Source: Eledone cirrhosa
Taxonomy: Eukaryota
DNA: 64,000 bases
Assembly (NCBI GenBank): GCA_964016885.1
Contig: OZ024742.1
Span: forward strand, 12,152,001 to 12,216,000
Direction of reading: 5' to 3'
Made by a program: the position numbers and the translations under genes
Notes under the pieces: generated by a model
Told to the model about the DNA's origin: nothing
The model's database searches: none
The model's input: only the letters and a program-made list of their open reading frames with translations
Shown: piece by piece, positions 2,481 through 62,320 of the stretch
Numbering within the stretch: the first letter of the stretch is position 1
How the letters are laid out: the number at the start of each line of letters is the position of its first letter

Positions 2481-5400
2481 TGTTGATTTTTACTTATGTA
2501 AAACAACTGTGATAGAATAATTCTTATTACAAATGAAATATAATATTACAGTTTTGACCCTCAGCAGGCGACAACGCATCAAATTACGGCATAGGGCCCT
2601 AATATTTAATATTTAATTTTGGATCAGAAATGTTATAGTCGAAAAAGAGAAAAATGGCTAAGTTGACAGACAGGCAAATAATTTCACCACCAACACCACC
2701 ACCGCCACCATCACCACTATCACGCCAAAAACTCTAGTCAAGTTACCTCAACTTCTATTTCTACTTCAACCTCAACACCATCACTACAGTACTACGATCA
2801 CATCACCACCACAACCACTGCCTCATTATCGCTACCGCCGCTATTCTCTCCCACTACCTCCTGCTAAGTACTACTAGCACATCACCACCACTGCCTCATT
2901 ATCGCTACCGCCGCTATTCTCTCCCACTACCCCCTGCTAAGACAGGCATCATAGTATTCCTACTAAATGAGGAAGGTATCAAAAGATATAGACAGATTTG
3001 ATGACCCGGTCAAAAAATCAAAAATCAAAAATCAAAATCAAAACAGCACAGCAGCAACGAAAAATGCAAAGAAAAGAAAAAAGAAAAGAAAAACAAACAA
3101 ACAGACAGACAAGCAAAAAAACTAAGTCAAACATTCAAACATTACATTACAATGAAACTTATGCTTATTTTTTTGTGGGGGGGGGTTACCTATTTGTTTG
3201 TTTGTTTGTTTATTTATGTTCGCCTACAGCGTGATGGAGCCACGCTAAAATCACCGAGGGTGATCAAATCACCGGTGGTTATGTAACCATACATTCACCA
3301 ATCCTCGATAAGAGTGTTTCAATGTCGAACCTAAACAGTTCGAATAACGATGAAAGGGAGACTGGAATGTCATGTGAAAGACTCTCACCCAGCAGGTGCT
3401 CCCTGGCCCAGCAGAAGGGACCTGGCTGTCAACCAAATACTGCTGGTGTTGGAGGAAGAAGAAGGAAAGGGACAAGAAACAACTGGACGAAAGAATTGAA
3501 TAGAACTGTTATGCAATGTTACCTGAAGAGTAACCCCAAGGAAAAAGGCTATAGGAAACGGATGCATAATGGCTATAGGAAACGGATCTATTTAAATTAG
3601 ATGAACAAAAATTGGCCGGGCAGACTCGGGTAATAAGAACTAATGGGTGGATAAGAGAGCTGGAACAGGAGGAACTCAGCAGAGAGATTAGATTGGAAAT
3701 GGAGGGTGGAGTAGGCCAGGCAAACGAGCCAGTGGGAGATGAAGGAGAAGAGGTTGAGAGAACGGAGGAAGCATCCGAAGCAGACAATGATCTGAATGCT
3801 GAAATAAATAATTGTTTCTACTTTAGGCACAAGGCCAGCAATTACTCAGTGCATTACTGGTACTTTATTTTATCGACCCCGTAAGGATGAAAGGCAAAGT
3901 CAACCTCGGCGGGATTTGAACTCAGATCGTAAAGGGACGTAACTATGCTGGAAAGCATGGCATCCGACCCTCTACCGATACTGCCAATCCACCGCCCAAT
4001 GCTGAAATAAATAATACCTGGAACAAAGAAACGGCCATTGAGGAAATGAATGTTGACGGGCTAGGACAAGATTTGGTTGATATCCTAAACTTAGTGGTAG
4101 ATGAAATGAACAATGATAGTGGGAAACCTATGAACCTAAGATTTGTAGACAGGAAAAAGTTAAAAGAAACAACAGCTAAGGTAAACAAAGTCATCCCATA
4201 CCTTGAGGCGAGGAACCTTCACCAGTGCAACAATATCCTCAAAGCAACAACAAATGCGTTGAGGAAATTACTTGGCATAAAAGCGAGAGGAAACAACAAA
4301 CAAGAAAGATCAGAACCTTGGTGGAAGAAACGACTTAATGGTCAAAACATGGAAATGATAAATGACATTGGAAAGCTTGAGTCCCTACTGAATGGGACAC
4401 TAAAAAATATAGACACTAAAAATAGACTGGAAATAAAGTACAAAACTAGGTGGAAAAAGCTAAATACTATCATAGAGGAACTGAAGCAACGCATTGTAGC
4501 AAAGAGTGCAAAAATTAGGCGATGCGAGAGCAGAGTCAGTCAGTATAGGCAGAACCGCATGTTTGACAACAACCAGAAGATGTTGTTTGGACAGCTTGAA
4601 GGGAAAGAAAGAGGCAACGACTTGATCCCTGAGGCGGAACAAACTAAGACATTCTGGAGAGGAATATGGGAGCAGGATGTTAAACATAATGACCAGGCAG
4701 TGTAGATTGAGACAGTACAAAAGGAGATTAGTGAACAGGCACACCAACAAACTAATTTGAGTATCACAGTTGAAACTCTTAAGGAGCAGGCTAAAAAACT
4801 AACCAACTGGAAACCACCAGGCCCAGATGGTGTGCATGGATATTGGATTAAAAATGTAACATCCCTCCACCCGAAACTGACAACCATGTTCAATGACTGC
4901 TTGATGTCAGGTGAGGTACCAGAGTGGTTGACAAAAGGTACCACAGTTCTGGTAATGAAAGACCGAATCAAGCGTAATGATTTTACCAACTATAGACCTA
5001 TCACATGTCTGTCCGTAATGTGGAAACTGTTGAATTAGTGTCTGAGGAAATCTACCATCACACAAACAACTTGTTACCGGACGAACAGAAAGGATGCCGA
5101 AAGAATTCCCGTGGTACAAAGGACCAGTTACTTATTGATAAGATGGTAATGAGGAATTGCAAAAGGAGACACACTGGCCTTGCCATGGGATGGATAGACT
5201 ACAAAAAGGCATTTGACATGGTGCCGCATTCTTGGATACCAAAACCCTAGAGATCTTCAAGGTGGCAGATAACATCAGACAGTCGTTGGGCAAAAGTATG
5301 AAGTCCTGGGAAATAGAGTTAACATCAGCTGGAGAATCCTTGGGAGGAGTGAAGATCAAGAGAGGTATCTTCTAGGGAGATAGTCTGTCCCCTCTGTTGT

Positions 5401-7014
5401 TTGTCCATGCCCTGATGCCCCTGACCATTATACTGCGAAAAGTGAGAGCAGGATACAAGTTGGGAAAGGGAGAGCTTACCATCAATCACCTCCTCTTCAT
5501 GGACGATCTTAAGCTCTTCGGGAAGAGTGAGAAGGAGTGGGATGTGCTTGTTGACACTGTCCGTATTTTCAGCAATGATATATGTATGCAATTCGGTATT
5601 AGTAAGTGTGGAGTCCTTGTGTTGAAGAGTGGTAAAATGAGCAGAAGCAACGGAATCCAGGTACCAACAGGTGAGATGATAAAGGAAATTGACACTGAAG
5701 AAGGATACAAGTATTTGGGTGTTCTGGAGGCTGATGACACCAAGAACAAAAAAAAATGAAGGAATTGATAAGATCTGAATACATTCGGAGAGTAAGGAGC
5801 GTATTAAAGTCAAATCTGAACAGTAGGAATGCCATAAGTGCAGTAAATTCCCGAGCTGTGTCTATTATTAGGTACAGTGCGGGAATTCTGAGATGGAATG
5901 TTGCTGAACAAAAAGAAATGCATAGGAAGACTAGGAAGCTATTGACTATCTACAACATGTTCCACAAGAGGAGTTATGTCGATAGGCTCTACTTAAGGAG
6001 ATCTGAAGGTGGAAGAGGTCTTATCAGCATAGAGGATTGTGTTCAGATGGAGAAAAACAACCTACACAAATACGTGATCGATAGTAAGGAGCCAATGCTC
6101 AGATTTGTACTGAAGGAGGGGACAATAGGCCAGGGGATGTCCAAGGAGGAAATAACAACGAGGAGAAAGATCAACCTTCATGAAAAATCCCTTCATAGTA
6201 CCTTCTTTGAGGAAACGGAATTCATAGATCCACAGACATGGAACTGGTTGAGAAGAGGAGACCTTAAAAAGGCTACAGAAGGAATGCTAATGGCTGCGCA
6301 AGAGCAGGCCCTCAAAACGAAGTGGCTGAAACGCCATATTTACAAGGAGGAGGGTAGCCCACTGTGCAGGATCTGTGGAGAGAGAGAGGAGACTGTGGCT
6401 CACATTGTATCCGAGTGTAAACACCTAGCCCAGACTCACTATAAGGGCTGGAGACATGATGTGATGGGCAGCGTGATCCACTGGCATCTATGCAAAGTAA
6501 ACAATTTACCACATTCTGAGAAGTGGTATTAGCATAAGCCAGAGTCGGTGATAAAACATGATCAGGTGAAGGTGCTGTGGGATTTTAGGATACGGACGGA
6601 TAAGAAACTGGAACACAATAGGCCTGACCTGGTGGTTTCGGACAAGGAAAAAAGATCGTGCCTGATTGTAGATGTAGCCTGCTCATTTGACATGACAGTG
6701 CAAGAAAAGGAGAGGGAGAAAATTAACCGATACCAGGACCTAAAGTGGGAGGTAAAAAGGATTTGGAACTGCCATGAAGTCAGAGTCGTCCTGATTGTCA
6801 TAGGTGCACTAGGTACTCTCTCAAAGAGTTTCCATAAATGGTTAAAGAAAATTAGTCCAGCCAGGCTTTTTGGAACACTTCGAAAGGCATGCTTGCTGGG
6901 AATAGAAAGAACCCTCCGATACGTCCTGAATGTCTGAGGCTGCAGGTAGCGGCTTGATATTCATTTCAACAAACTTTCCAGTTAAATAACATCAATGACT
7001 GAGACTCAAAGAAC
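2481..7014 (+). mobile_element. R4/Dong-clade RLE non-LTR retrotransposon, copy A1 (near full length, defective)
   Basis: Broken ORF 3322-6937: [54 protein letters not shown] zinc knuckle, RPDLV..KINRYQDL RLE; followed by (AAT)n. Confidence 0.92.
3813..3997 (-). mobile_element. tRNA-derived SINE (Deu/Nin-domain-like) inserted in Dong copy A1 with an 18-bp TSD
   Basis: A box TGGCAGTATCGG, B box GAGTTCAAATCC, central GCCTTTCATCCTTACGGGGTCGATAAAATAAAGTACCAG; TSD aatgctgaaataaataat at 3795-3812 and 3998-4015; empty site present in copy A2 near 34170-34190. Confidence 0.95.
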
Positions 7015-7201
<187 letters not shown>

Positions 7202-16272: not shown

Positions 16273-16452
16273 ATTAAAAATACAAAATAAATAACTACAA
16301 AACATTAAGAAATTAAAAAGAAACAAGTGTTCTTGTCTGATGACCCTGTGATAAATAGGCGAAACTCCAGAGTAACAAGACTCATTATTTAGCCTTATAT
16401 TTAAACTCCACTTCGGTATTGAGTACGCTTTTTCTTCAACCTTCAACTACAC

Positions 16453-19426: not shown

Positions 19427-21389
19427 TTTTTTGTTCCCCGGTTCTAAGTGTCATTTCATGGTTTGTTATATCCCATTATTATTTAAAAAAACACTATTAT
19501 TTACTCAGAAGTTTGGGTTTGTGGTCAGGAGTTTGATATTTCGAAATTTTCATATTTTTCAAGAAAAAACACAATTTTTAAAAATTTAGCAGTTCATATA
19601 ATTAAATCAACAGAGTATATATTTATTTTATTACACAAGCTTATCAAAAGCAAACAAGTAAAAACAAATAACACTTATAAAGCAACTTATACACGTCAGA
19701 AATGACTGGATTTCCTGGATTTGCGGTTGTAGTCCAGGTCGCATTCCCGCACTAGCCCCCAGATAGAGTCCCCCATCATGTTTTCATTGTAGTGGCCCTG
19801 GTACCTCCACTCAATCTCTTTCACATCTTGGTGGAATCGTTCGCCTTGTTCTTCTGAGTAGGTGCCCATATTGTCCTTGAATTTTTCCAGGTGAGCGCCC
19901 AGCATATGGAGTTTAAGCGACACCCTGCATCCCATGGCGCCAAAAGCCTTTATCAAATCCTGCACCAGTTGATGGTAGTTTTCAGCTCTGTAGTTGCCCA
20001 GGAAGCCCTTAACAACTGCCCTGAAACAGTTCCATACTGTTCTCTCAATCCTATTGAGCTTATTGGAGAACTCGGTAGACTCAAACACCTTCTTTATCTG
20101 AGGCCCAACAAAAATTCCACCTTTGATTTTGGCCTCAGATAACTTGGGGAAGAACTCAAGAAGGTACTTAAAAGCAGCTGATTCTTGGTTGACAGCCTTC
20201 ACAAATTGCTTCATCAACCCCAACTTAATGTGCAGTGGCGGCATGAGCACAATCCTGGGATCAACCAGTGGCTCCCACATGACGTTCCGGGTCCCAACTA
20301 CACATTCTGTTCGCTGCTCCCATTTCTTTCTTTTGTAGTGGTCAGAGGTGGCTCTACTGTCCCAAAGGCAGAGGAAGCGTTGGAATTTGATAAAGCCTCC
20401 TTGAAGTCCAAGCAGGAAAGCCACCATCTTGAAGTCTCCAATGATTTCCCAATTGTACTGGTCGTATTGCAGAGCTTCCAAGAGGACTTTCACACAGTAG
20501 TAATTTTCCTTCAGGCAGACTGAATGAGCTAGGAGGAGTGTCGGGAACTTGTTTCCATTGTGGAGGAGGACAGCCTTCAAACTTGTGGTGGAGCTGTCTA
20601 TAAATAGCCGCCACTCCTTGGGCACAAACGGCACCCCAATAACGTCAAACAGTCTAGGCACGTCATGGCTGAAGCAGAGGCCATCCCTAGGAGTGTAAAA
20701 GCCTGAGAAAGGTTCGTGTCGACTTCTCTGACTTGTCACCTGCACTTCCTCCTTGACTAAGTTCCACTGATTCATCCTGGAGACGAATAGCTCTGCATTG
20801 GACTTGGTCAGACCCATATCCCTGACCAAGTCATTGACTTCTTTTTGGTTTGGGAAGTGAGGAACTTTTTCTGGTCCCTTAGGGAGGTAATCCAAGTCCT
20901 CAGCATCCATCTCCACCTCTTCATCAGAATACTTGTCTTGGAAAAAAAATTTGATATGCAATAGGAAATAAATATTGGAAAGGGAAATACATATTTAAAT
21001 AGTATAAAAGAACACTAATCATACTAATGAAAATTCGTGCTTAAAACACAACTTACCCTTTATTCAGGGTGCGAAAATCCAGTATCAATAAATCTCTTTA
21101 ATCCACTTTTTAACAATTTTATACTTTATTGCACTTTTATAATTTTCTTTATTTTATAATTTTAATTTAACCTGAAACATATATAAAAAAAAATCATTTA
21201 ACATAAGCAAATTAAACATACAACGTAAAATCCAGCATACAAATAATTCTAGTGAATAGCTTAGAATTTTTACAAACCCAAACTTTTAACTGTTTAATAG
21301 CACTTTTTTAATATTTATTTGGGACCTAAGCAACACAAAAGGGTGATTACAAGCCAGGAACAGAGAACAAATTTTTTTTTTAGACGGTG
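19427..21389 (-). mobile_element. Chapaev3-like (CMC superfamily) DNA transposon
   Basis: Minus-strand terminus CACCGTCTAAAAA at 21389 flanked by TTA; imperfect subterminal inverted blocks (tttgttc, a few bp to gttc; ctatta; agtttgggtttgt) at both ends; left tip missing. Confidence 0.75.
19696..20961 (-). CDS. Chapaev3-like DDE transposase core, stop-free for 421 codons, lacking the N-terminal Zn-binding region
   Basis: Motifs WRLFIDSS, LKAVLLHNGN, GDFKM, CLWDSR, PPLHIKLGLMKQFVKA, SEEQGERFHQD. Confidence 0.85.
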   Translation of the reverse strand: MHIKFFFQDKYSDEEVEMDAEDLDYLPKGPEKVPHFPNQKEVNDLVRDMGLTKSNAELFVSRMNQWNLVKEEVQVTSQRSRHEPFSGFYTPRDGLCFSHDVPRLFDVIGVPFVPKEWRLFIDSSTTSLKAVLLHNGNKFPTLLLAHSVCLKENYYCVKVLLEALQYDQYNWEIIGDFKMVAFLLGLQGGFIKFQRFLCLWDSRATSDHYKRKKWEQRTECVVGTRNVMWEPLVDPRIVLMPPLHIKLGLMKQFVKAVNQESAAFKYLLEFFPKLSEAKIKGGIFVGPQIKKVFESTEFSNKLNRIERTVWNCFRAVVKGFLGNYRAENYHQLVQDLIKAFGAMGCRVSLKLHMLGAHLEKFKDNMGTYSEEQGERFHQDVKEIEWRYQGHYNENMMGDSIWGLVRECDLDYNRKSRKSSHF

Positions 21390-24438: not shown

Positions 24439-24599
24439 GTAATAATAATAAATTTGAAGACTAAAATCTTCCTCCGGTTGCAACGTTTTTTGAAATATCC
24501 ACTTCTGCGTTTACAGATTGACTTTGTTAGTTTCAGAAGATCCCGTTAAGGGTGAAAGCAGCGATTCTTTGCTTAAACTTTAATCTGTTATTTTAATAA

Positions 24600-24600
<1 letters not shown>
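24439..24600 (+). mobile_element. Internally deleted mini-copy of the 44.6-47.0 kb PLE; CAGAAGA-core HHR at 24529-24579
   Basis: 5' cap gtaataataataaatttgaagactaaaat fused to cttcctccggttgc..ttttaataa; (TA)n on both sides. Confidence 0.85.
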
Positions 24601-24657
<57 letters not shown>

Positions 24658-26105: not shown

Positions 26106-29100
26106 TGCATTTATCTTGCTTTATGTTTATACGAGTTATCACCAAGTCACAACCAGTGACCTCAAGAGACAACAAGGTCCGCTATGTTCAAGAAAGAACA
26201 CACATACACACATGCATCTTTAGGTGTTTAGACTTGTGATGTACTTATATTGACATAATCTTCCTTAGTATATGGGCAGTTCCCATTAGTACTATCTTTT
26301 GTATTTCTCCTACACGTGGGTTTCCTGGGATTTGTGATAAGTAATCATTAGACCCCTTAGGTATCATTCCTAGAGCGCCTACAACCACTGGTATTGTTCT
26401 AGTTCTCAATTTCCACATTTTTCCAATTTCTATCTCCAGGTCCTTATACTTGCTCAATTTTTCAAATGTCTTTTTAGATACATTCTTGTCTATTGGAACG
26501 GACATATCAATTAGCGGCATTCCCTCTTTTTAAAGTCCTTCAGTATTATATCACGTCTATTTGCATATATTTTTCGGTCTGTTTGGATGCTAAAGTTCCA
26601 TAAGATTGAGATGTGATCTTTTTCAAGTACGAGAGGTGGTTGATGCTCCCACCAATTCTTTTGATGGGGCAGGTCAAAATGCTTACACATTATCCAATGT
26701 ATGTATTGTGCAGCCTTGTCGTGCCTATTTAGGTATTCGGTTGGAGCTATAGGACTGCACATTGAAATTATATGATCAATAGTTTCTGGTTGTTTTTTAC
26801 ATACACGACATAATGGGTTGTATCCATTTTTTATTATGTTGGCTTGGTAATTTTTTGTTGGCAGACACTGATCTTGTGCTGATATAATCAGTCCTTCAGT
26901 CTCCGATTTCAGTCCAGAAGATGCCAACCACTGATGGGTTAAAGTTTTGTCAACATCAGGATTGTTAGCTCTTTCTGGTTATTTTCCATACAGATGCTTT
27001 TCTTGCCATTTCTTAGCCAGTTTCTGTAGCAGTTCTTTCTTTGCAGTTACTTTTACCTGCTTTGCTTTTTCTGTGATTTTCATTTCAGCAGTAAATGGAA
27101 CTTCTGAAATTTGTAGTCCATTACTGTATCTTTGTGCATCTTTTGTAATGGAGTATGATCTTTTGATGCTTTCGTGTTTCAAAACGAGTTTGATCATCCA
27201 ATTGTTGCAGTTTTCAACGCAATGTCTAACCGGATTAACCCACGTCCTCCTTCTTTCCTAGGGAGATATATTCTATCTATGTCTGCCTTAGGGTGATGCA
27301 TTCTGTGCATGGTTAAGAATGTTCTAATTTTTGTATCGATTCTACGGATCTTTGTGCTTGACCAGTTAATGACATTGTAACTGTAGGTTACTACTGGTAT
27401 GGCAAGCGAGTTTATGGCATCGATCCTATTCCTTGCATTCAATTCCATTCTTAAGATTGCTCTTACTCTGCGGTAACATTCCTTCCTTATCCTTTCCCTC
27501 ATTGTCGAGTGCTTGATTCCGTCTCCTTCACAAACACCTAGATACTTGTAAGTTTCCTCTTGATCAAGTTCTATTATCACAGTCCCCCGATCAAGATTAA
27601 TATCTGAACTTTTCAGCAGCTTTCCTCTGGTGAACGTTGCTTTGGCGCATTTATCTAGTCCAAACTCCATTTTAATGTCTTCACTGAACTGCTTCACAGT
27701 GGATAATAGCCCTTGCAATTGTTCATCATTTTTTGCAAATAGTTTCAGGTCATCCATGTAGAACATGTGATTAATGGTTTTGTCATAGACTGTATATCCA
27801 TGTTTTTTTTCATTGAGCATTTTACTTAATGGTATAAGTGCGATGCAGAATAAAAGCGGTGATAAAGAGTCACCCTGAAAAAATCCACAATTAATATTAA
27901 CTTCTCCAGCTTCCAGTGATTTTGTTTCACTATTCAAAAGGAGTGTCGTTTTCCATGTCTTCATACTGAATGACAGGAACCTCGTGACAGCGGGAGATAT
28001 TTTGAAAATCTCTAAACATTTTTCAATCCAATTGTGTGGCAAACTATCGAATGCTTTTTTATAATCTATCCAAGCAATTCTGATAATTATGACAATCTTC
28101 CAGTATCATTTTGTTAACCAAAAGCTGATTTTAACAGCCATATGAGCTTCGTTTACACCCTTTCTGCTCATTGGGAAATAGATCATTTGTTATCAGGTGG
28201 TCATATGTATATTCAATTAAGACTGATGTTATATTTTCCCATGTTTGTTCCTCAAGGTGAGCTGTATCTTTCATTTGTCTGTCTATCCATGGGGCATGTA
28301 TATTATGAACTTTTTCTTCGGCCCAGATCTTTTCCCAGAATTCTTGCACTTCCTCCTTGGGTGGTATTGATTTAGCAGTTATTCTTGACTTGCTAATTTT
28401 TCTGTAGAAGTTTCTTTGGTTGTTTTTTAACATATTATTGTCCTTATAGAATCTAGATCGTTTTTCAAAGCGCCTTATACGAGCAGCTTTGGCCGACACA
28501 TTTTGCTTGATTATTTCTATCAGCATGTCTATGTCACTTGTTGATTTTATACTGTATTTTCTTTTTAATTTTCTAAATTTATTTTGTTTAATATGTTCAC
28601 CTACTTTGTAGTTTGTTAAAATTTCTATGTCAGATCGGAGAAGGTTTATTTGGCGATTGATGTTCTCTTTATTTTGTCATTTTCACTCCACATAAGTGAG
28701 TGGTGACTTTAGCCGATGCATAATAGAGATGATTTAGATCAGTAATGTTTAGTTTGTTTGTGATGATAATGTTTTTAAGAATTATGTTAGTCTTGTGTAT
28801 TATCTTTTTGTTCTGTTTGGAGTTCTGGATCTTAGGGAGAAGGTCTCGTTCCCCCCCAGTCAGATTCTTTCATTTTCATCCATTCGATCATAATTTCATC
28901 CTTCAAGTTGGCAAGTTTATTCTCATTCATTTCTTTATCATTTACAATCTCATTGTTTTCATTTTGAGTTTCATCTTGAGCATGCACTCCCTCCACTTTT
29001 TCGATCCTTTCTTTAATTTGTTCTGTTGTCAGTGATTCCGCCCTAATCCTGGGATTCGAAGTGTTACAATTTACCTCGTTTTCACTGACACATGTTTCAT

Positions 29101-30779: not shown

Positions 30780-31166
30780 CATTTTATTCCAATTTAATTT
30801 GAAAAGGAAAATCAGGGTTGAGAGGGAAGTGCTCTCTTTCCAGCTCTTTGTTGAAAGATGGGTGAGAGAGGCAAGAATGGTCCGAGTGAATGGACCTACT
30901 CTGAGTATATGCCTGTAAATTGAAGGTGGAAAACTGGGAGAGGACACTCGCCCTGGTGGTCGGGGTCACTGTGGCCTTTTTTTTAATGGGCTTTCTCCAC
31001 GATGGCCCTCGGAGGTCTCCCCCCATTGGGGAATTTTTCATTGTTCTTTTATTACATCCTCTGTTTTTTTTTACGCGCAGAAATGCCCATGTGTACCGTC
31101 CTCTATTGTCCTGTACTGTCCTTAATGTCTACTTTGTGTAAACCCTTGTGGTTAATAAAGAAAGCA
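30780..31166 (+). mobile_element. Tx1-like LINE 3' end fragment
   Basis: Closely matches 54340-54740 (LKRKIRVEREVL.. plus 3' UTR ending aataaagaaagca then (TTA)n). Confidence 0.9.
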
Positions 31167-31189
31167 TTATTATTATTATTATTATTATT

Positions 31190-34100
31190 GTTCTTTGAGT
31201 CTCAGTCATTGATGTTAGTTAACTGGAAACTTTATTGAAATGAATATCAAGCCACTACCTGCAGCCTCAGATATTCAGGACGTATCGGAGGGTTCATGCT
31301 GATCCCAGCAAGCATGCCTTTTGAAGTGTTCCAAAAAGCGGGGCGGGGCCAATTTTCCTTAACCATCCCTGGAAACTTTTTGAGATAGTACCTAGTGCGC
31401 CTATGACAATCGGGACCACTTTGACTTCATGGCAGTTCCAAATCCTTTTTACCTCCCACTTTAAGTCCTGATATCGGGTAATTTTCTCCCTCTCCTTCTC
31501 TTGCACTCTCGTGTCTAATGGGCAGGCCACATCCACAATCAGGCACGATCTTTTTTCCTTGTCCAAAACCACCAGGTCAGGTTTATTGTGTTCCAGTTTC
31601 TTGTCCGTCTGTATCCTAAAATCCCATAGCACCTTCACCTGATCGTTTTCTATCACCGACTCTGGCTTATGCTCATACCACTTCTCAGAATGTGGTAAAT
31701 TGTTTACTTTGCATAGATGCCAGTGGATCATCCTGCCCATCACATCACTTTATAGTGAGTCTGGGTTAGGTGTTTACACTCGGATACAATGTGAGCCACA
31801 GTCTCCTCTCTCTCTCTCCACAGACCCTGCACAGTGGGCTAGCCTCCTCCTTGTAAATATGGTGTTTCAGCCACTTCGTTTTGAGGGCCTGCTCTTGCGC
31901 AGCCATTAGCATTCCTTCTGTAGCCTTTTTAAGGTCTCCTCTTCTCAACCAGTTCCATGTCTGTGGATCTCTGAATTCCATTTTCTCAATGAAGGTACTA
32001 TGAAGGGATTTTTCATGAAGGCTGCTCTCTCTCCTCGTTGTTATTTCCTCCTTGGACATCCCCTGGTCTATTGTCCTCTCCTTCAGTACAATTCTGAGTA
32101 TTGGTTCCTTACTATCGGTCACGTATTTGTGTAGGTTGTTTTTCTCCATTTGAACACAGTCCTCTATGCTGATAAGACCTCTTCATCTTCAGATCTCCTT
32201 AAGTAGACATAACTCCTCTTGTGGAACATGTTGTAGATAGTCAATAGCTTCCTAGTCTTCCTATCCAGTTCTTTTTGTTCAGCAACATTCCATCTCAGAA
32301 ATCCCGCACTGTACCTAATAATAGACACAGCTCGGGAATTTACTGCACTTATGGCATTCCTACTGTTCAGATGTGACTTTAATATGCTCCTTATTCTCCG
32401 AATGTATTCAGATCTTATCAATTCCTTCATTCTTTTGTTCTTCATGTCATCAGCCTCCAGAATACCCAAATACTTGTATCCTTCTTCAGTGTCAATTTCC
32501 TTTATCATCTCACCTGTTGGTACCTGGATTCCGTTGCTTCTGCGCAATTTGCCCCTCTTCATCACAAGGACTCCACACTTACTAATATCAAATTGCATAC
32601 ATATATCATTGCTGAAAATACGGACAGTGTCAACAAGCACATCCAACTCCTTCTCACTCTTCTCGAAGAACTTAAGATCCTCCATGAAGAGGAGGTGATT
32701 GATGGTAAGCTCTCCCTCTCCCAACTTGTATCCTGCTCTCACTTTTCGCAGTATAATGGTCAGGGGCATCAGGGCAAGGACAAACAACAGAGGGGACAGA
32801 CTATCTCCCTGGAAGATACCTCTCTTGATCTTCACGCCTCCCAAGGATTCTCCAGCCGATGTTAACTCTGTTTCCCAGGACTTCATACTTTTTCTCAACA
32901 ATTGTCTGATGTTATCTGCCACCTTGAAGATCTCTAGGCTTTTGGTGATCCAAGAATGAGGCAACATGTCAAATGCCTTTTTGTAGTCTATACATCCCAT
33001 GGCAATATAAGTGTGTCTCCTCTTGCAATTCCTCATTACCATCTTATCAATAAGTAACTGGTCCTTTGTACCACGGGACTTCTCTCGGCATCCTTTCTGT
33101 TCGTCCGGTAACAAGTTGTTTATGTGGAGGTGATGGTAGATTTCCTCAGACACAATGCTTGTTAACAGTTTCCACATTACGGACAGACATATGATAGGTC
33201 AATAGTTGGTAACATCATTACCCTTGATTCGGTCTTTCATTACCAGAACTGTGGTACCTTTTGTCAACCGCTCTGTAACCTCACCTGACATCAAGCAGAC
33301 ATTGAACATGGTTGTCAGTTTCGGATGGAGGGATGTTATATTTTTAGTCCAATACCCCTGCACACCATCTGGGCCTGGTGATTTCCAGATGGTTACTTTT
33401 TTGGCCTGCTCCTTAAGAGTTTCAACTGTGATACTCAAATCAGTTTGTTGGTGTGCCTGTTCACTAATCTCCCTTTGTACTGTCTCAATCTACACTGCCT
33501 GGTCATTATGTTTAACATCCTGCTCCCATATTCCTCTCCAGAATGTCTTAGTTTGTTCCGTCCCAGGGATCAAGTCGTTGCCTCTTTCTTTCCCTTCAAG
33601 CTGTCCAAACAACATCTTCTGGTTGTTGTCAAACATGCTGTTCTGCCTATACTGACTGACTCTGCTCTCACATCGCCTAATTTTTGCACTCTTTGCTACA
33701 ATGCGTTGCTTCAGTTCCTCTATGATAATATTTAGCTTTTTCCACCTAGTTTTGTACTTTATTTCCAGTCTATTTTTAGTGTCTATATTTTTTAGTGTCC
33801 CATTCAGTAGGGACTCAAGCTTTCCAATGTCATTTATCATTTCCATGATTTGACCATTAAGTCGTTTCTTCCACCAAGGTTCTGATCTTTCTTGTTTGTT
33901 GTTTCCTCTCGCTTTTATACCAAGTAATTTCCTCACCGCATTTGTTGTTGCTTTGAGGATATTGTTGCACTGGTGAAGGCTCCTCGCCTCAAGGTATGGG
34001 ATGACTTTGTCTACCTTAGCCGTTGTTTCTTTTAACTTTTTCCTGTCTACAAATCTTAGGTTTCCCACTATCATTGTTCATTTCATCTACCACTAAGTTT

Positions 34101-35567
34101 AGGATATCAACCAAATCTTGTCCTAGCCCGTCAACATTCATTTCCTCAATGGCCATTTCTTTGTTCCAGGTATTATTTATTTCAGCATTCAGATCATTGT
34201 CTGCTTCGGATGCTTCCTCCGTTCTCTCAACCTCTTCTCCTTCATCTCCCACTGGCTCGTTTGCCTGGCCTACTCCACTCTCCATTTCCAATCTAATCTC
34301 TCTGCTGAGTTCCTTCAGTTCCAGCTCTCTTATCCACCCATTAGTTCTTATTACACGAGCCTACCCGGCCAATTTTTGTTCATCTAATTTAAGTAGATCC
34401 GTTTCCTATAGCCTTTATGCATCCGTTTCCTATAGCCTTTTTCCTTGGGGTTACTCTTCAGGTAACATTGCATAACAGTTCTATTCAATTCTTTCGTCCA
34501 GTTGGTTCTGGTCCCTTTCCTTCTTCTTCTTCCTCCAACACCAGCAGTATTTGGGTGACAGCCAGGTCCCTGCTGCTGGGCCAGGGAGCACCTGCTTGGT
34601 GAGAGTATGTCACATGACATTCCAGTCTCTTCTTCACCGTTATTCGAACTGTTTAGGTTCGACGTTTAAACACTCATATCGAGGATTGGTGAATGTATGG
34701 GTTACATAACCACCGGTGATTTCATCACCCCCAGTGATTTGATCACCCTCGGTGATTTTAGCGTGGCACTATCACGCTGTAGACGAACATAAATAAACAA
34801 ACAAACAAACAGGTAAAAACCTAAAAAAATAAGCATAAGTTTCATTGTAATGTAATGTTTGAATGTCTGACTTAGTTTTTTGTTTGTTTGTCTGTTTATT
34901 TGTTTTTCTTTTCTTTTTTCTTTTCTTTGCGTTTTTCGTTGCTGCTGTGCTGTTTTGATTTTGATTTTTGATTTTTTGATTTTTCGACCGGGTCATCAAA
35001 TCAGTCTATTTATATCTTTTGATACCTTCCTCACTTAGTAGGAATACTATGATGCCTGTCTTAGCAGGGGGTAGTGGGAGAGAATAGCGGCGGTAGCGAT
35101 AATGAGGCAGTGGTGGTGATGTGCTAGTAGTACTTAGCAGGAGGTAGTGGGAGAGAATAGCGGCGGTAGCGATAATGAGGCAGTGGTTGTGGTGGTGATG
35201 TGATCGTAGTACTGTAGTGATGGTGTTGAAGTTGAAGTAGAAATAGAAGTTGAGGTAACTTGACTAGAGTGTTTGGTGTGGTAGTGGTGATGGTGGTGGT
35301 GGTGGTGTTGGTGGTGAAATTGCCTGTCTGTCCACGTAGCCATTTTCCTCTTTTTTTACTATAACATTTCTGATCCAAAATTAAATATTAAATATTGGGG
35401 CCCTATGCCATAATGTGATGCGTTGTCGCCTGCTGAGGGTTAAAACTGTAATATTATGCTTCATTTGTAATAAGAATTATACTATCACAGTTGTTTTAAA
35501 TATGTAAATATCAAAAACATAAGGAGCGATTCCAGAAGGATATATATACCATGTGCGTTTCTTCCCT
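31190..35567 (-). mobile_element. R4/Dong-clade LINE, copy A2 (full-length termini, defective)
   Basis: High-identity reverse complement of 2481-7014 minus the SINE; (TTA)n on both sides. Confidence 0.93.
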
Positions 35568-37334: not shown

Positions 37335-37788
37335 ACAGACGCAAGAACAAATATACACACAAACATCTGAAACCACAGACACCGCACTCACTACAAACAC
37401 AACCGAAACAATACCACCAAAACCATCACCACGACAGCCACGCAAACAAATAAAATCACACCAACAAAACTTACAAAAGTTTCCTGCTCGTCAGGAGGGC
37501 CAACAAGGAACTGATGTGAAAATATACAAAAAGTGGGGGAAATTTTGAAATCGAGCACATTTCGCATGCCGTAAGATTTGGTTCTGGTGCGAATGTCAGT
37601 CGAATTATACAAAGAAATACGAGACAGCTTTCCTCGGGACGTGGCAAACCGAACGTAAAACCAACTTCAAGACTTTTAAGGGGGTTCCCAAAGGAAACCC
37701 CACCAACTATGGAGGTCGAACAACCCGACCTTCACAAGAGCCCGGAAGGTAAGTAAACCTTTCCTCTCTCTCTTTTTAACCTGCCAAC

Positions 37789-38648
37789 ATGGCCGTATTA
37801 AGAGTAGGATGTTTAAATGTTCGAGGCCTGGGATCGTCCTGGAAGCAGGGTCACCTGCTCAATGACCTCAGATCTCTAGAAATGGATGTAATTGCCGTCA
37901 GCGAGACCAGGATTTCCGACACGCGCGAACTAGCCTACATTTTCGACGACTATCAGATCTTTGCATCTGTTAGCCGGCCGGGAATGGGAGGCGGGGTGGC
38001 AGTGCTGTTTAGGAAACGCTTGGATCTCGAGGTAAGGTCCATCTTCCGGGAACCGGACGGGAAGTTGGTGGTCCTGGACGTGAACAATAACGAAGGTGGT
38101 GCCTTTAGACTGGTGGCCGTCTATGCTCCTACTGGGGAAGTGAGGCCGGACTTCTTTAGACGCCTGGAAGCCTTTCTGGGCATGTCTTGCCCTTTACTGT
38201 TAGCGGGGGACTGGAACGCCATCTTAGACGCACGCTGGGACTGTGTGGGAGTATCCGATAGGAGCGAGGGGTGCAAAAGCCTAAAGAACCTGATCAGCCA
38301 GTTCCAACTGTCTGACAGGTACCGACTAGATTTCCTTAATGCGCCAGTGTGGACCTGGGCTAACCGCATAGGGTCATCTAGATCGTATATAGACAGGATA
38401 TTCATTAGGAAAATAGACAGAAATAGTATAAGCTGTCCACGTTTTGAAACAGTCGCCTATTCAGATCACAAGTTTGTGATCTGTATGGTCGACCTAGATA
38501 AGACGCGTAGGTTAGGACCTGGTTACTGGAAGCTAAACATGTCATTTCCGGCACGTAAGGCTTACAGGGACCAGGTCAACAATTTAGTTAAGAAAAAGTT
38601 GACAAGGGGAGTCGTCAACAATAGATGGTGGGGGGCTCTCACAAGAGT
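37789..38648 (+). CDS. Tx1-like ORF2 APE endonuclease, truncated
   Basis: LNVRGL, SETR, VYAP, GDWN, SYIDR, SDH, GYWKLN. Confidence 0.9.
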
Positions 38649-38902
38649 ATATATATATTAGAGAGAATCGGTGGGGCGGGGCAAGAGCTCAACAGTCGGG
38701 CCCCGACCCTCTCTCTAATATTGTTACACTCTACTATCCCAAGTACCGAGTACTCTGTCTTACTAGTTTAAAACTGGTAAAATCTCGATCTATATATATG
38801 TATATTTATATATGTGTGCGTGTGTGTATATATATTCATATGTGTTTGTATTTATATATATTTGTATGTATGTGTGTATATATACTCATTTATATATATG
38901 GG

Positions 38903-44046: not shown

Positions 44047-44157
44047 CAGTGTGTGTGTGTATTATAAGAACAGATTAAAGTTTAAGGAAAGGATTGCTGC
44101 TTTCACCCTTAACGGGACCTTTAGAAGATCCCGTTAAGCGTGAAAACAGTGATTCTC

Positions 44158-44585: not shown

Positions 44586-44633
<48 letters not shown>

Positions 44634-44645
44634 ATAATAATAAAA

Positions 44646-45980
44646 TTGAAGACTAAAATCCAAAGAGGGCTCGATAAGGAAAATATACCACTTCTCCTTA
44701 GAGCTATCAATTTCGCTAAAACACTCACAGTGGTTAAGGATTTTGAAGTTGATGTCATCCTTAATGCCCGAAAGTCGGTGATTAATTTCGACGACTCTAT
44801 TTGGATTAAAAAATCAAATAGTACCCCATTCGATGTGAGTATGGGCGCCAGTGACTCTGCGGAGGTTACTGATCTTATTGGCCTTTTCCTTCTTTTCTCT
44901 ATCAAGGACGAATTCCCCAACGCGGGCGGTGGTTTGTACCGTGACGATGGTCTTTTGACCATGACTAAGTGCGGACCTCGTGCTTGCGACAGATTCAGAA
45001 AAGAACTCACAGCCTTCTTTAAAGGCTTCAACCTCTCTATACAGGTTGAGGCCAATCTCTCGGTCGTTAATTACCTCGACGTTACCCTCAATTTACTGAA
45101 TGGGTTGTATTACCCGTATAGAAAGCCGAATGATACGCTTAATTACATAAGTAAGCATTCCAACCATCCTGCCAGCATAACCAAGAACCTGGTAAGAAAC
45201 GTTTCGTTGAGGCTTTCCCGTCTTTCCACCAACAAGCGCATTTTCAACGACCATTCCACTTATTACAATGAAGCTCTTGCGCGAAGTGGATTTGTCGATA
45301 AGGTAGCATATACAGAGTACGAAAATAGACCTAGAAGAAATAGATCCCGTCGCATTTGTTGGTTTAAAACACCATATAATATGGAGGTGGCCACACCATT
45401 AGCTAAGATCTTTCTTTCATTTATTACGAAGCATTTTCCCCCTACACATAAACATAGTAAAATTTTTAATAGAAATACTATTAAAATTTCTTACTCTACG
45501 ACTCCTAACCTTGCACATAACATCACAGCTTCAAATTTGGCTAAACTACCTAGCCGTAGGAACACGTGCAACCCTGTAGTTAGTACTAACTGTAATTGTA
45601 GGAATCGGGCTGATTGCCCCCTATCCGGGAAATGCCTCTCTAATAACATTGTCTACAAATGTAAGGTTGTAACACCCACGTCCCGTAGGGCCTACATAGG
45701 GTTAACCGCCAATAGTTTCAAGCAGCGTCTTTACATGCATACCCATTCTTTTCGTTACCCTCTGAGAAGGAATATGACGTCACTTTCAGCTTATATCTGG
45801 AGTCTAAAAGACAACCACACCCAATATAAGTTACACTGGCAGATCCTAGCTAGGGCTAGATCGTATAACGGAAATAAAAGACCATGTGACCTCTGCGCCG
45901 CTGAGGCCCTGGAAATACTCTCCGCCACAGACCACATCTTAAACAAAAAATTTGAGGCAATTTCGGCTTGTAAACATTAA
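44646..45980 (+). CDS. PLE reverse transcriptase C-half plus GIY-YIG endonuclease, stop-free; the first 13-14 codons come from the cap, not RT
   Basis: MGASDSAE, LYRDD, NYLDVTL, SNHP, CNC-x5-CPL-x3-C linker, VYKC..YIG, CDLC, LNK..CKH. Confidence 0.9.
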   Translation: MKTKIQRGLDKENIPLLLRAINFAKTLTVVKDFEVDVILNARKSVINFDDSIWIKKSNSTPFDVSMGASDSAEVTDLIGLFLLFSIKDEFPNAGGGLYRDDGLLTMTKCGPRACDRFRKELTAFFKGFNLSIQVEANLSVVNYLDVTLNLLNGLYYPYRKPNDTLNYISKHSNHPASITKNLVRNVSLRLSRLSTNKRIFNDHSTYYNEALARSGFVDKVAYTEYENRPRRNRSRRICWFKTPYNMEVATPLAKIFLSFITKHFPPTHKHSKIFNRNTIKISYSTTPNLAHNITASNLAKLPSRRNTCNPVVSTNCNCRNRADCPLSGKCLSNNIVYKCKVVTPTSRRAYIGLTANSFKQRLYMHTHSFRYPLRRNMTSLSAYIWSLKDNHTQYKLHWQILARARSYNGNKRPCDLCAAEALEILSATDHILNKKFEAISACKH

Positions 45981-46959
45981 TTGCACAAAACTTTCCTGTA
46001 TTACAGCCCCACGTTTTACCCTAACGGATAGCACGATCTATACGTGGATATTTTACGTCTTGATGTGGGAGCTAAGTATATGTTTTGTTTATTCCTTTAC
46101 TTATTTGCATAGGTAAGTATATATTACCCGTATATTTTGTGAAGGTATGTATACCTTCTCGTACGTATATTTGACTGTTATAGCGTATAATTTTTACATA
46201 TTCTGGTATTTAGGGTTTGGCTATGTGTATACGGGAATTTTGCGTCCGCGTGAGTGTGCAGGTTCGTACGTATGGTGGGTGTGTGTATATGTGTACTTCT
46301 TGTTTTAGTTGACTTACGTCTCCGAACATTCGTGTATTTATATGTAGGTATGCGTGTGCGCTTGTTATATACGTATTTATTTACTTATATACGTTTATAT
46401 AATTATTTATTTATTTGTACACAAGCATACACACACACACATATTTATATGTGCGTGGTTTTGTATACCCATGGTAAGGTTTTGCTTATGCTTGTGTATG
46501 TACGTATCTGTTTGCGTGTATGTATTTATTTGTTTCTATTACTTCTGTATTGTATTTATTTACTTTGTTCTTAACTCTGTAGCGGAGATTCATTTGGTCT
46601 CCTAGTTAGAATTTTAGTCTACGATTTCTGCTATACCATTTACGTGGTTTTGTCTTTGCGTGCTATTGTTCTCCACGCTCCACATATGACTTATTATCTT
46701 CGTTTTTTCGTTCATTGCCAGAGAACGTCTCTATGCACCACCTAAGAGAACATTAGTCTACGACCTCTTTTATACCATAATCGTGGTTTTGTCTTTGCGC
46801 GTAATTGTTTTTCACCGCTCCTATTAATGACGTATAATTCGTTTTTTCCCGTTCTTTGCCAGCGAATGTTTCCACGAACCAAAGTATCGTCTTCCTGTCT
46901 TCCTCCGGTTGCAACGTTTTTTGAAATATCCAGTTCTGCGTTTACAGATTGACTTTGTT

Positions 46960-47010
46960 AGTTTCAGAAGATCCCGTTAAGGGTGAAAGCAGCGATTCTT
47001 TGCTTAAACT
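46960..47010 (+). ncRNA. Type I hammerhead-like motif with variant core CAGAAGA (family D)
   Basis: agttt-CAGAAGA-t ccc gttaa ggg t-GAAA-gcag cgattct ttgc-TT-aaact; distal stem I acagattga/ttaatctgt. Confidence 0.75.
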
Positions 47011-47026
47011 TTAATCTGTTATTTTA

Positions 47027-47062
<36 letters not shown>

Positions 47063-47063
<1 letters not shown>

Positions 47064-47206
47064 TAATAATAATAAAATTGAAGACTAAAATCCAAAGAGG
47101 GCTCGATAAGGAAAATATATATCAAATATATGTTAGTTTCAGAAGATCCCGTTAAGGGTGAAAGCAGCGATTCTTTGCTTAAACTTTAATCTGTTATTTT
47201 AATAAA
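47063..47206 (+). mobile_element. Mini-copy of family D (cap plus HHR end)
   Basis: Cap 47063-47131 fused to gttagtttcagaaga..aataaa. Confidence 0.85.
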
Positions 47207-47231
47207 TATATATATAATATATATATATACA

Positions 47232-48731: not shown

Positions 48732-49268
48732 TAAAATAAAGTTAAATAAAAGTCAAATGATTAAAATTTAGCTTCGTTTATTACTGCTATATATATTTCA
48801 GTGACAGCCATCTTTGGCTGTGACCTCTTCAGGCAGTTTGAATTAGTATGGTATAGACAAGTACATATGTTGTTTAGGTGTATGATATTGTCAATACTCT
48901 GATATGCCCAGTTCCTTGCTGGGTTGTTAATTCACTGGGGAACTGGAGTCATATGACTCCAGTTCCCCAGTGAATTAACAACCCAGCAAGGAACTGGGCA
49001 TATCAGAGTATTGACAATATCATACACCTAAACAACATATGTACTTGTCTATACCATACTAATTCAAACTGCCTGAAGAGGTCACAGCCAAAGATGGCTG
49101 TCACTGAAATATATATAGCAGTAATAAACGAAGCTAAATTTTAATCATTTGACTTTTATTTAACTTTATTTTACACTACTCCGGAGTAACCAAACCAACC
49201 TGCGCACTTCGTCGAGTGCTCCAGCCTGCATACTGAGGTGTTGGTATACAACCAACATAAACTCAAAA

Positions 49269-53194: not shown

Positions 53195-53232
<38 letters not shown>

Positions 53233-53235
<3 letters not shown>

Positions 53236-53385
53236 ATAATAATAAATTTAAAGACTAAAATCCAAAGAGGGCTCGATAAGGATAAATATATATCAAATAT
53301 ATAAGAATCGTAGAGGAAATATTTATTAAAATAACAGATTAAAGATTAATTCCGTTCATTGCCAGAGAACGTCTCTATGAACCAC
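53233..53385 (+). mobile_element. Rearranged family D fragment: cap, inverted 3' tip and 3' UTR piece
   Basis: Cap matches 47063-47131; tttattaaaataacagattaaag inverts the 3' tip; cgttcattgccagagaacgtctctatg matches 46709-46735. Confidence 0.8.
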
Positions 53386-58900: not shown

Positions 58901-58933
<33 letters not shown>

Positions 58934-58938
<5 letters not shown>

Positions 58939-59170
58939 TAAAATAACAGATTAAAGTTTAAGCAAACAATCGCTGCTTTCACCCTTAACGGGATCTTCTG
59001 AAACTAACAAAGTTAATCTGTGAACACAGAAGTGAATATTTCAAAAAACGTTGCAACCGGAGGAAGACAGGAAGACGATACTTTGGTTCGTGCAAACGTT
59101 CCCTGGCAAAGAACGGGAAAAAACGAATATAATACGTCATTATTTGGAGCGGTGACAAAAGACAAAACCT
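58934..59170 (-). mobile_element. Family D 3' end; CAGAAGA HHR at 58955-59005
   Basis: Reverse complement of 46785-47030. Confidence 0.88.
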
Positions 59171-59174
59171 CGTT

Positions 59175-62100
59175 ATATGTATTATATCTATTTATATGTT
59201 ACACACTTTATTGTGTTGTATCAGATGAAAGAATGGTATTTAACTAATGTATTGGTACGCGATGGGGCCCACCCACAGCCCCGGCGGACAGAATGGAGAA
59301 GGCATTTCCCGGGAGGACGGCAAGGGAGACGCGCTGGAAAAGCCACTCCAACTCGCGGGGTTCACACCTACGGCTGGCCAGTTCAGCGCCTATGGTGGTG
59401 AGTAAGGAGGTAGCCCTGGGGTCGAGGACACCAGAAGTTTCCACTGCCAGGGGAACGACCTCAAACCTGGCGGAGAGCGACCGGTATTTGAGGAGTTTGG
59501 CCCCCTCAGCTCGACGAGCAGCAGGTTGCGGCTGCAAAAAGTGTCGGTGCAAGTGGCATCCCAGACGAGAGGTTTGCCACCGCAAACGGGAAGATGGTCA
59601 TGCCATCTGGCCTTTTGCCGTCCCCTCGATCCAGCCCCACCGGCTCGAGCTGGGAAGGGAATCCTGCAGCGTCCAAGCCATGCTTAATGACCTCGTTGAG
59701 GGCAGTATGGCGTGGAATGCGGCTGGCACTGTGGGGACAGGAAAGCGGGTGGAGGCCGAAAGAGTCCACGGTGAAACCGCAGCGACATTGGTGTGGTTGG
59801 CAAATCCGGAGGCCGAGCCTCAGGGAAACGCCGATTCGCAGGCTATGGTTGTCTAGCTGCGTGCCAGTGGAGAAGGAGGGCAGAGCATGGAGCCAGGCAC
59901 CACTTTGGGGTTTGGATGCCGCACGAAAACAATCGAGGCGGTGCTGGTCGAGCTGGCGCGTGAGCCTGTCTGAGGCCAGGCTGCACAGGATGGCACCCTA
60001 AGTGCGTTTGGGAGACTTGAGGTCAACAGGGAGAGAAGGAGGAGGGACGTCTACTGGGCTAAGTCCCAGCCGGTCCCACGTCTCACAGGCGGCCTCACGT
60101 TCTCTGAACACAGAGGGTTCTGTTGTGTTTTGAAGAACCCTGCTGACGAGGACGCGGCACGAGGTTACCGACGAAAGTTACGCCGGCAAAGCTAGTGAGA
60201 TCGGGGACCGGAGGCCTAGGCCACCATACCTGACCGGTAAAGTGGCCTGTTGCCACCCTATGTCGTCAAACTTGACGTTGCATATCCCCTCGGCTGCTGC
60301 TCGGATACAAGTATCGAGGTCAGCGAGGAAAGATGTCTGGGTGTAGCATGGAGCGCTGCGGGGTGTATAGAGGAGCTTCGGCATGGCGAAACAGTTCCTC
60401 AGCAGAAAGAGAGCTGGGTGGCCGTCAATCAAGCCCAGTCGGCTCGTGAGAGGCTGGAGCTGTTGAAGCCTGGACCTGATGGTGGAGCGGATGGCCGGCG
60501 AGTGCATCGGTGACCCGAGGATGAGGACATCCTCTTTGGGGGTCACCTGAACCTGTCGGAGAATGGACCGCACGTCCAAGACGGAGGCTGCAAAGCTCGC
60601 AGCATCGAGGCTGACGTTCACCATCTCCGACTTGGCCGAGTTGACCTGAAGGCCGATTCCCGCCAGGGCAGGAATCACCGATTGAAGGTCTTGGCAGACT
60701 GTCCGTACGGGCCCGCCCAACGTAGCATCATCCAGATACCAGACGTTGAGAGGGGCCATGATACTCCGGGCGATGTGTTCAATACCAAGGGCGAACAGGA
60801 GGGGTCCTAAAGGGTCGCCCTGTTGGACCCCAGTAGCCAAGGGTATGACCGTATCAGCAGCTAGGAGCATGCTGGGGGCTCCATATGACAGGTAGGCCAG
60901 CGGGTAGGCAGAGGGGGCTCGGCTGAAGCAGACCTCGAGCAGATGATCCCGGCGTAAAGAGTTAAAGGCATTCCTCATGTCAAGCTTGACAATGAGGTGC
61001 CTGGAGTCCCTGGATGCCGGTACCGATTGGCAGCTGCTGAAGAACTGCCTGATTGCATGAGAGGCTCCCTCACAGCCACCGGACACGCCGACACCCAGTT
61101 GCACCGGACTAAACTCCTCACCCAGTTCGTGTGTGACGGACTTGCAGATCACCTTGGCAGCCAGCCTCCGGAAGACATTGCCCAAAGAAATGGGGCGTAT
61201 GCCACCCTCTTTCTTCCTGAGAGCGGTGAGTCTGGCCGAAAAAAAGAGACCTAAGGCGTAAGGGTCGAGGGCACCACGAATGCGCCTATTGGTGAGCACC
61301 ACAATTGCACTCAGAAGGCGGCGCCCGGCCTCAGCGGTGAGGGGGATGTCAACTCCTTGAGGTGGCTTGTTCTGAGACCATCAACACCTCCACAGCTGCT
61401 AGCTGGGAAGGACCTGATGGCGGACATGATATCTGCATCAGTAGCTACAAGGAGCAGGTGGGGGTCGGGTGGGGGTATGGGTCTGAGATCAGTGGGAAGC
61501 TCGGGGTGTTTGAGCTGCAGAGCAGCCAGGATCTCCTCGGTGGGTTGGAGGACAGTGTCCTCTGAGGCAACACCTCTGACTGCGGCCAATACATCACCCA
61601 TGATAAGCTTTGTGTTTACCTGGTCACGCAAACGCTTGGCGTCGGCCTCGGGGGTGGAAGATAGGGGGTACCTGAGGGTGGGGTGTGTGGCGTCCCTGGG
61701 CACGCTTGTAATGGGCGCTCGCCCAAATGACGAGACATTGTCCTTGACGAAGGCTGCTGTTGACCGGCCGCCCCGGTCAGAGCCAGAGCTGGGGAGGCCG
61801 AGGGCTAGTGGAGCGAAATAGAACAGCCGCTCCCAGTCACTGGCTCGATTGGAGTCAAGGGCGCTTTCAATCGAGGAAGCGAGGGTATCGGTTACCGGCA
61901 CCCGTGCCGCTCTCGGGATCCTGAGTGAGATCTTCCGGAGCCGCCTAAGCCAAGCGATGTTGACCAGCGAGGCTCGGGTGTCAGGCAAGCTCGCTGTCCC
62001 ATCTGGTGGTGTGCCAGACGGCCGTGGCTGGGAAGACGTGGGGAAGAGGCAGCTCCTGCACCTCCACGCTGCGAGGACATTGGAAGCTCGACGAGCCAAG

Positions 62101-62320
62101 CCAACGCAGGTGAGATGGTGGAAGCAGCCGCACCACAAACAGTTCCGGCCCCTCTTCCGTTTGCTAGTGGTGCCGCAAATGCTGCAGGTGTCGATTTGGA
62201 AGGGTGGGGGATGGGGCGTGGGGCCGGGGACTGGGGCACCGAGCGGCATCAGGGGTGGGTGGCTGGTGTGTGTGGTTGGAAGGGAAAGTGGTGGTAAGAG
62301 GGCAGCATAGCTCACCTATA
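59175..62320 (-). mobile_element. CRE-clade-like RLE non-LTR retrotransposon with N-terminal PHD finger; GC-rich, few lesions
   Basis: GGVDGLR, KKEGGIRPI, QLGVG, LDMRNAFN, GVQQGDPLGPLLF, WYLDD, GGLGL, C..GLHPLSC..RH, RPDG, KYRSL..PLAVETSG. Confidence 0.88.

Follow-up and report, generated by a model that had tools for sequence, protein, structure and literature searches.

Locus and architecture of the motif

The window analysed in this work is a stretch of 64,000 nucleotides from Eledone cirrhosa (contig OZ024742.1, positions 12,152,001 to 12,216,000 of the forward strand), and the size of the host genome is 3.0 Gb. The window contains a truncated copy of a Penelope-like element (PLE) that carries a hammerhead-shaped motif, together with shorter copies of the element. 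The features are listed below by their positions in the window.

44628..44687, minus strand: 3' tail of the element, inverted, at the 5' junction of the main copy
44686-47034, plus strand: main window copy of the element, 5'-truncated, with the inverted tail at its front
44686..45980, plus strand: truncated element ORF, with the C-terminal half of the reverse transcriptase (RT), the CxCX5C linker, and the GIY-YIG endonuclease
45981..46959, plus strand: 3' UTR, or upstream part of the pseudo-LTR
46944..47019, plus strand: complete type I hammerhead-shaped motif, with distal stem I, bulge, proximal stem I, core, and stems II and III
46944-46952 with 47011-47019, plus strand: distal stem I, 9/9 pairs, one G-U among them
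46960-46964 with 47006-47010, plus strand: proximal stem I, 5/5 pairs
46965..46971, plus strand: core C3-A4-G5-A6-A7-G8-A9, with the variant base A4 at 46966
46972..46984, plus strand: U10.1-U11.1 mismatch, 3-bp stem II, and 5-nt loop II
46973-46975 with 46981-46983, plus strand: stem II, CCC/GGG
46985..47005, plus strand: GAAA core (46985-46988), 5-bp stem III, 7-nt loop, and CUU triplet
46988-46992 with 47000-47004, plus strand: stem III
47003-47005, plus strand: CUU triplet
47026..47031, plus strand: AATAAA word; the 3' end of one class of copies, which continue into (TA)n
47060..47209, plus strand: mini fold-back insertion (inverted tail 47060-47131, forward copy 47131-47209)
24467..24602, plus strand: short copy of the 3' end, motif complete, core 24534-24540
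58931..59159, minus strand: short copy of the 3' end, motif complete, core 59000-58994
44060..44156, no single strand: fifth copy, a decayed fold-back, forward arm TAGAAGA at 44122-44128
53230..53349, minus strand: tail-only fragment of the element, starting near the predicted cut site

The pairing was read in the main copy, where a three-helix junction (stems I, II, and III) is present around the core. The bases C3, G5, A6, G8, A9, G12, A13, A14, A15.1, U16.1, and H17 are all present, and the U4 of the CUGA turn is absent, with A instead. At the core positions other than 4, the majority base is the same in old copies that were retrieved by their flank only. Across 23 aligned copies, 89.7% of the cells are paired, compared to 27-48% when the alignment is slid. 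Stem II opens on the U10.1-U11.1 mismatch, which was not mentioned in the initial annotation. The motif fails the strict hammerhead consensus (PMC3088659), and it is therefore filed as a variant and not as a canonical member. Hammerhead numbering places the predicted cut between 47005 and 47006.

The four copies that had been reported to read CAGAAGA do so, with C3 at 24534, 46965, and 47140 on the plus strand and at 59000 on the minus strand. Their stems, GAAA, CUU triplet, and bulged distal stem I had also been described as intact. This is right for the main copy and wrong for the forward copy of the mini fold-back insertion (47131-47209, core 47140-47146), which is without the 5' strand of distal stem I and starts at 47131 and not at 47135 as noted. 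The bare 7-mer CAGAAGA is weakly above chance in the window (15 occurrences for 7.5 expected, a count reached in 2 of 100 shuffles). The Rfam hammerhead models gave no match at E<=10 over 46900-47040, and likewise none at the gathering score for four natural T4 loci. Over the whole window, the Rfam matches were repeat-driven and of miRNA type only, among 150 of 191 matches listed.

Other repeat families also carry hammerhead-type motifs. Canonical CUGA motifs of such families lie at 16337 (+), 16630 (-), 44531 (+), 10387 (-), and 57697 (+), and about eight CUGA hammerhead families were seen in the 1.12 Mb of genome sequence scanned. A perfect 221-bp hairpin at 48732-49173 has CUGAAGA...GAAA in each arm (49073 +, 48832 -) and probably arose when another PLE family inserted as a fold-back. 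Elsewhere in the genome (G000:C3:354881724-354881993), a tandem array with 35-base spacing is built of hammerhead core and stem II. The window also holds an inverted pair of an RT-bearing non-LTR element (2479-7038 and 31166-35518, 92-97% alike), further RT/endonuclease frames at 26511-28676, 37780-38661, and 59506-62315, and a 432-codon open frame (19696-20994, minus strand) that by eye resembles a transposase-derived or other mobile gene.

The host element

The sequence identifies the host as a Hydra-clade PLE with RT, C-terminal GIY-YIG, and a unit of 3.25 kb. The clade was assigned by the protein-motif definition given in PMC8557442 (RWK-type motif, DKT, CxCX5C linker, CxxC, and CxH), and the element protein contains, by eye, RWR, CNCRNRADC, CDLC, and CKH, with DKT in three of four copies. 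Intact genomic copies have a single 713-codon open frame with RT motifs and a C-terminal YIG stretch (by eye), and the ORF identity among them is 97.5-98.6% (5 copies vs L061). The Pfam search of the element protein returned no family match, and the genome search with the closest outside protein (57%) returned the same family only. Aligned over 2,378 columns, the window element and an intact genomic copy are 97% identical, and the window ORF ends about 18 codons short of the stop of the intact copies. The 3' UTR of the element also contains a diverged direct repeat of 135 bases (46608-46740 and 46747-46881, about 77% identical).

The motif lies about 205 bases before the first ATG of intact copies and occurs again about 3.25 kb on. 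Among 14 long loci, the motif was found at both ends, about 3.25 kb apart, in three, and an inverted upstream copy was found in four. The 3' ends of the element fall into two classes and have (TA)n flanks. The motif had been placed at the 3' end of a Penelope element. The element is indeed Penelope-like, but the placement is incomplete, as the pseudo-LTR motif is also the 5' start of the next unit.

Position 4 across the genome and in older subfamilies

Core position 4 was counted by genome-wide pattern matching with the 30-base context held constant. A is present in 18,557 of the 18,744 exact matches (the reversed control of the 30-mer with A4 gave 0), T in 74, and C or G in 113, with about 40 C and about 60 G among 100 matches of the latter class listed (by eye). 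Among the non-A matches, the share of T is not clearly above one third (p 0.07). Seven of 10 fetched T4 loci are broken directly upstream of the core, compared to two of 20 A4 copies (by eye). The T, C, and G copies look like sporadic changes after or during insertion, and fold-back repair may be the source of the T4 copies, since the start of the core is near-palindromic.

These counts bear out the initial annotation, which held that the change was in the master element and is not post-insertion decay: A4 is found in 99.0% of the matches genome-wide and in the older subfamilies too. The genome-wide count of CAGA versus CTGA that it proposed (A 18,557 vs T 74) gives A4 as the consensus and not as a mutation of a local subfamily. 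Contigs from eight of the 20 sequencing runs that contain the sequence, with eight different organism labels, were compared over 46850-47035 and have no other letter at 46966. Their depth is low and they may be traces of the same organism, so they are not counted as evidence across species.

A second young subfamily, with an ORF that is 90% identical, has 3,590 matches, with A in 99 of the 100 listed. Older subfamilies were sought with positions 4 and 7 left free, which gave 520 matches, young copies included. From 69 fetched loci, 52 old copies were left after removing duplicates and copies with the young loop II, and 48 of these have A, two have T, and two have C. The older subfamilies have different loop II sequences and lengths, and their N7 is A or U. 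One old copy has an ORF that is 72% identical to the young ORF, decay counted. As this pattern fixed much of the core, the search was repeated with the 3' flank alone (172 matches, 30 fetched). Twelve of these loci keep C3-N4 forward and all 12 have A (by eye). In the remaining 18, the sequence is interrupted in the core or downstream of it, or cannot be read.

A relaxed pattern that admitted only U4 (181 matches, control 84) had suggested an older U4 subfamily. This candidate was rejected as a selection effect, because the same subfamilies were returned with A4 when position 4 was left free.

The Hydra-clade hammerhead rows in file S2 of PMC8557442 read ctga in 26 of 26, and relatives at about 40% protein identity (L294-L297, four metagenome contigs) have one common CUGA motif. 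Hammerhead matches of other families in 1.12 Mb of genome sequence, found with position 4 free, have U in 37, C in one, and A in none (n=38). A4 is fixed, old, lineage-specific, and derived, the last two because U4 is the state in all of those Hydra-clade rows and in 37 of the 38 other genomic hammerheads.

Constraint on the motif

The young copy was compared with the majority of 21 old copies, with stem positions taken only where the search pattern had left them free and with loop III omitted, since it was used for copy selection. The two differ at 2 of 36 stem positions, whereas the bulge, loop II, and N7 together have 6 differences over 14 positions (p 0.004). Further upstream, where the alignment is sparse, they differ at 28 of 50 and 24 of 50 positions. 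Read from the alignment, this is the pattern of change of a maintained hammerhead. Covariation is not above shuffles, as the score was reached by 78 of 500 shuffles, and five pairs have two-sided change, a number as high in 114 of 500. The stems are conserved in sequence, so a constraint at the DNA level or from protein binding would give the same pattern. One unchanged base alone cannot show selection for A4.

The main rival reading, for which our confidence is low, is that the motif is a catalytically dead relic, in which U4A abolished cleavage long ago and the sequence is preserved because it overlaps an internal promoter (+1 to +50) or a binding site of the element protein. The branch of 243 exact copies (L175-L194), in which two of the three stem II pairs are broken, has its own 3' end and yet was amplified. 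Against a relic, the changes in N7, loop II, and the bulge fall in places that a hammerhead leaves free. Both strands of four helices are spared, including the strand that lies 9-16 bases upstream of the predicted transcription start and its partner 53-60 bases downstream of that start. The outer distal pair is U-A in 11 and C-G in four of 23 copies, which points the same way but is not above shuffles. No subfamily with a variant stem III was found among 100 of 808 matches listed.

Predicted transcript start and cut-site junctions

The 5' junctions of copies were counted under a two-base exclusion filter. A start exactly at 46960 is shared by 1,261 copies, compared to 75 at -4 (main subfamily only) and 267 at +8. 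The base before the 46960 junction is G in 53 of 100 listed, compared to 19 of 100 at -2 (p 8e-7), and reverse transcriptases add a G when they copy a cap. Of 30 fetched loci with the 46960 junction, three are complete hairpins whose fold has one additional C-G pair. The word TCAGT/TTAGT around 46960 is one that we take to be an initiator (Inr). From these junctions, we infer a capped transcription start at 46960, the first base of stem I. Such a start would explain the copy ends there and predicts that cleavage would remove the cap. The molecules with 5' ends at 46960 were copied uncut.

No pile-up of 5' ends was found at the predicted cut site among 809 matches (30 fetched). The junctions are spread from -4 to +8, and many of those near the cut site are internal deletions. 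The RNA reads of the lizard element likewise have no pile-up at the cut site (PMC11167929). In many thousands of copies, the 3' UTR is followed by the uncut motif and then by the tail, so their template was uncut or re-ligated.

Possible function of the variant

With modest confidence, we favour the reading that the U4A motif, placed at the predicted capped start of the RNA, is a self-cleaving ribozyme that is slowed or is gated by a protein. Transcription from 46960 would give a leader form with the 5-bp stem I only, and the read-through 3' form would add the distal helix and the bulge, which could dock with loop II. A4 would remove the contact of U4 to the A6-N7 phosphate, and an A4-U11.1 pair would favour a competing helix that hides G12, so that cutting would be slow. 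With slow cutting, the capped RNA would last for translation and would be reverse-transcribed uncut. Cleavage would come late or would be aided by the protein of the element.

U4 contacts the phosphate between A6 and N7 (PMC3088659), and CUGA mutants of a type III hammerhead have low activity with no rescue (PMC9901934). A4 should therefore cost activity. In the A4 window copy, the competing helix is favoured over the hammerhead fold at 37 C by 1.5 kcal/mol in the long form and 2.2 kcal/mol in the short form, and in the natural T4 copy L010 its advantage is -0.7 (long) and -0.1 (short) kcal/mol. The competing helix is likely (probability >0.5, 37 C) in two of the eight old copies tried, and the hammerhead fold is never the dominant or minimum-energy prediction with either A4 or T4. 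A slow ribozyme would suit the element, since cutting of the leader would take off the cap, and the template for new copies is uncut RNA. A viroid U4C variant has been reported to be much slower in vitro and sufficient in vivo (PMC3088659). The lizard PLE hammerhead has been reported to cut only with the protein of the element and to be dispensable for insertion in vitro, and the unprocessed RNA is the main insertion substrate (PMC11167929). The two readings proposed in the initial annotation, a natural functional core variant and a deliberately attenuated ribozyme, are both hypothetical, and the evidence leans towards an attenuated or conditional ribozyme over a fully active one.

An extension of this reading, which we regard as unlikely, is that the motif is a two-state switch. 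The leader form would be off, with no distal helix and with G12 hidden by the A4-U11.1 helix, and the 3' form would cut with the distal helix or the protein. If this is true, one sequence would protect the start of the mRNA and process its end.

Full activity is improbable. It would require the long distal stem I, the U-rich bulge, and loop II to compensate for A4, with only the capped short form being slow. In its favour, stem III is 5 bp long and the distal helix 9 bp, which sets the motif apart from the minimal Hydra-clade hammerheads. Tertiary contacts can lift rates about 1,000-fold (PMC2553840) and have been proposed to offset variant cores (PMC3088659). However, many thousands of copies span the uncut motif, and among CUGA double mutants only the C3/G8 swap rescued activity (PMC9901934).

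It is very improbable that A4 is held as part of a C3-A4-G5 3' splice acceptor (pyrimidine tract and CAG), with splicing dropping the front of the ribozyme: a pyrimidine-rich run that ends in CAG does precede the core, donor-like words occur at 46113 and 46474, and an intron ends where helix I begins in Drosophila Penelope (PMC4209133), but the predicted capped start six bases upstream would leave no intron in the main transcript, and the two donor-acceptor joins have 0 and 0 genomic matches, which is a weak test because PLE copies keep introns.

Comparison with known hammerheads

The Hydra-clade PLE hammerheads (Craig et al. 2021, PMC8557442), including Hydra-1_Obim, are similar in arrangement, as they come from the same clade of elements and are likewise type I, on the sense strand, and near the 3' end. 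Several of the rows given there share the U after A9 and the U before G12, which make up the common U/U opening of stem II, and the U at H17. Those rows have ctga, a short stem III, and a loop of 1-3 nt, whereas the motif in this work has A4, a 5-bp stem III, a 7-nt loop, and a bulged distal stem I. A canonical hammerhead near the 3' end is described in that paper as a trait of the clade and is not part of the protein definition; the element in this work has a hammerhead with A4.

The minimal PLE hammerheads (Cervera and de la Pena 2014, PMC4209133) are similarly present in both pseudo-LTRs, and low intrinsic activity is expected of them. The U4A motif has a stem III of its own and so need not dimerise, unlike the minimal PLE hammerheads. 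The U3-A8 core variant in that paper keeps a base pair, whereas U4A is without a known change in a partner.

Perreault et al. 2011 (PMC3088659) described natural variants of the core, among them the viroid U4C, A6C, U15.1-A16.1, and insertions. Position 4 has thus varied before, as U4C, and the U10.1-U11.1 mismatch is known and tolerated. Those variants are rare cases, whereas U4A is the fixed state in several subfamilies and in more than 18,000 copies. U4A is absent from the text and the supplement text of that paper, and no earlier case of a natural U4A hammerhead was found in the literature searched, which comprised text without figures and few subscription papers.

The Anolis Poseidon hammerhead (Frangieh et al. 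2024, PMC11167929) is also in a PLE pseudo-LTR, with uncut RNA being copied and with two kinds of 3' end. No position-4 change is described in the available part of that paper, and the activity was assayed there, whereas here the motif is known from sequence. In the full-length type I hammerheads of the Schistosoma type (PMC2553840), an A-U Hoogsteen contact is conserved, which the U-rich bulge and the A-ending loop II of the motif could form. Stem II here has three pairs on a U/U mismatch, unlike the Schistosoma type, and docking is putative.

U4 has been treated as invariant, and searches discard matches without it. The expectation that CUGANGA descriptors would miss the motif agrees with the search methods described in PMC3088659 and PMC8557442, which demand U4. 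If the two-state switch is true, a whole class of ribozymes would have escaped searches restricted to CUGA. The natural A4 and U4 copies, each in the long and the capped short form, offer a four-way comparison that bears on the open question of the purpose of PLE hammerheads. A4 has been kept through several expansions with the rest of the motif intact, which is a natural test of how much damage to the core is tolerable. Judged by these comparisons, the motif is a real, lineage-wide, and evolutionarily stable U4A variant of the PLE hammerhead.
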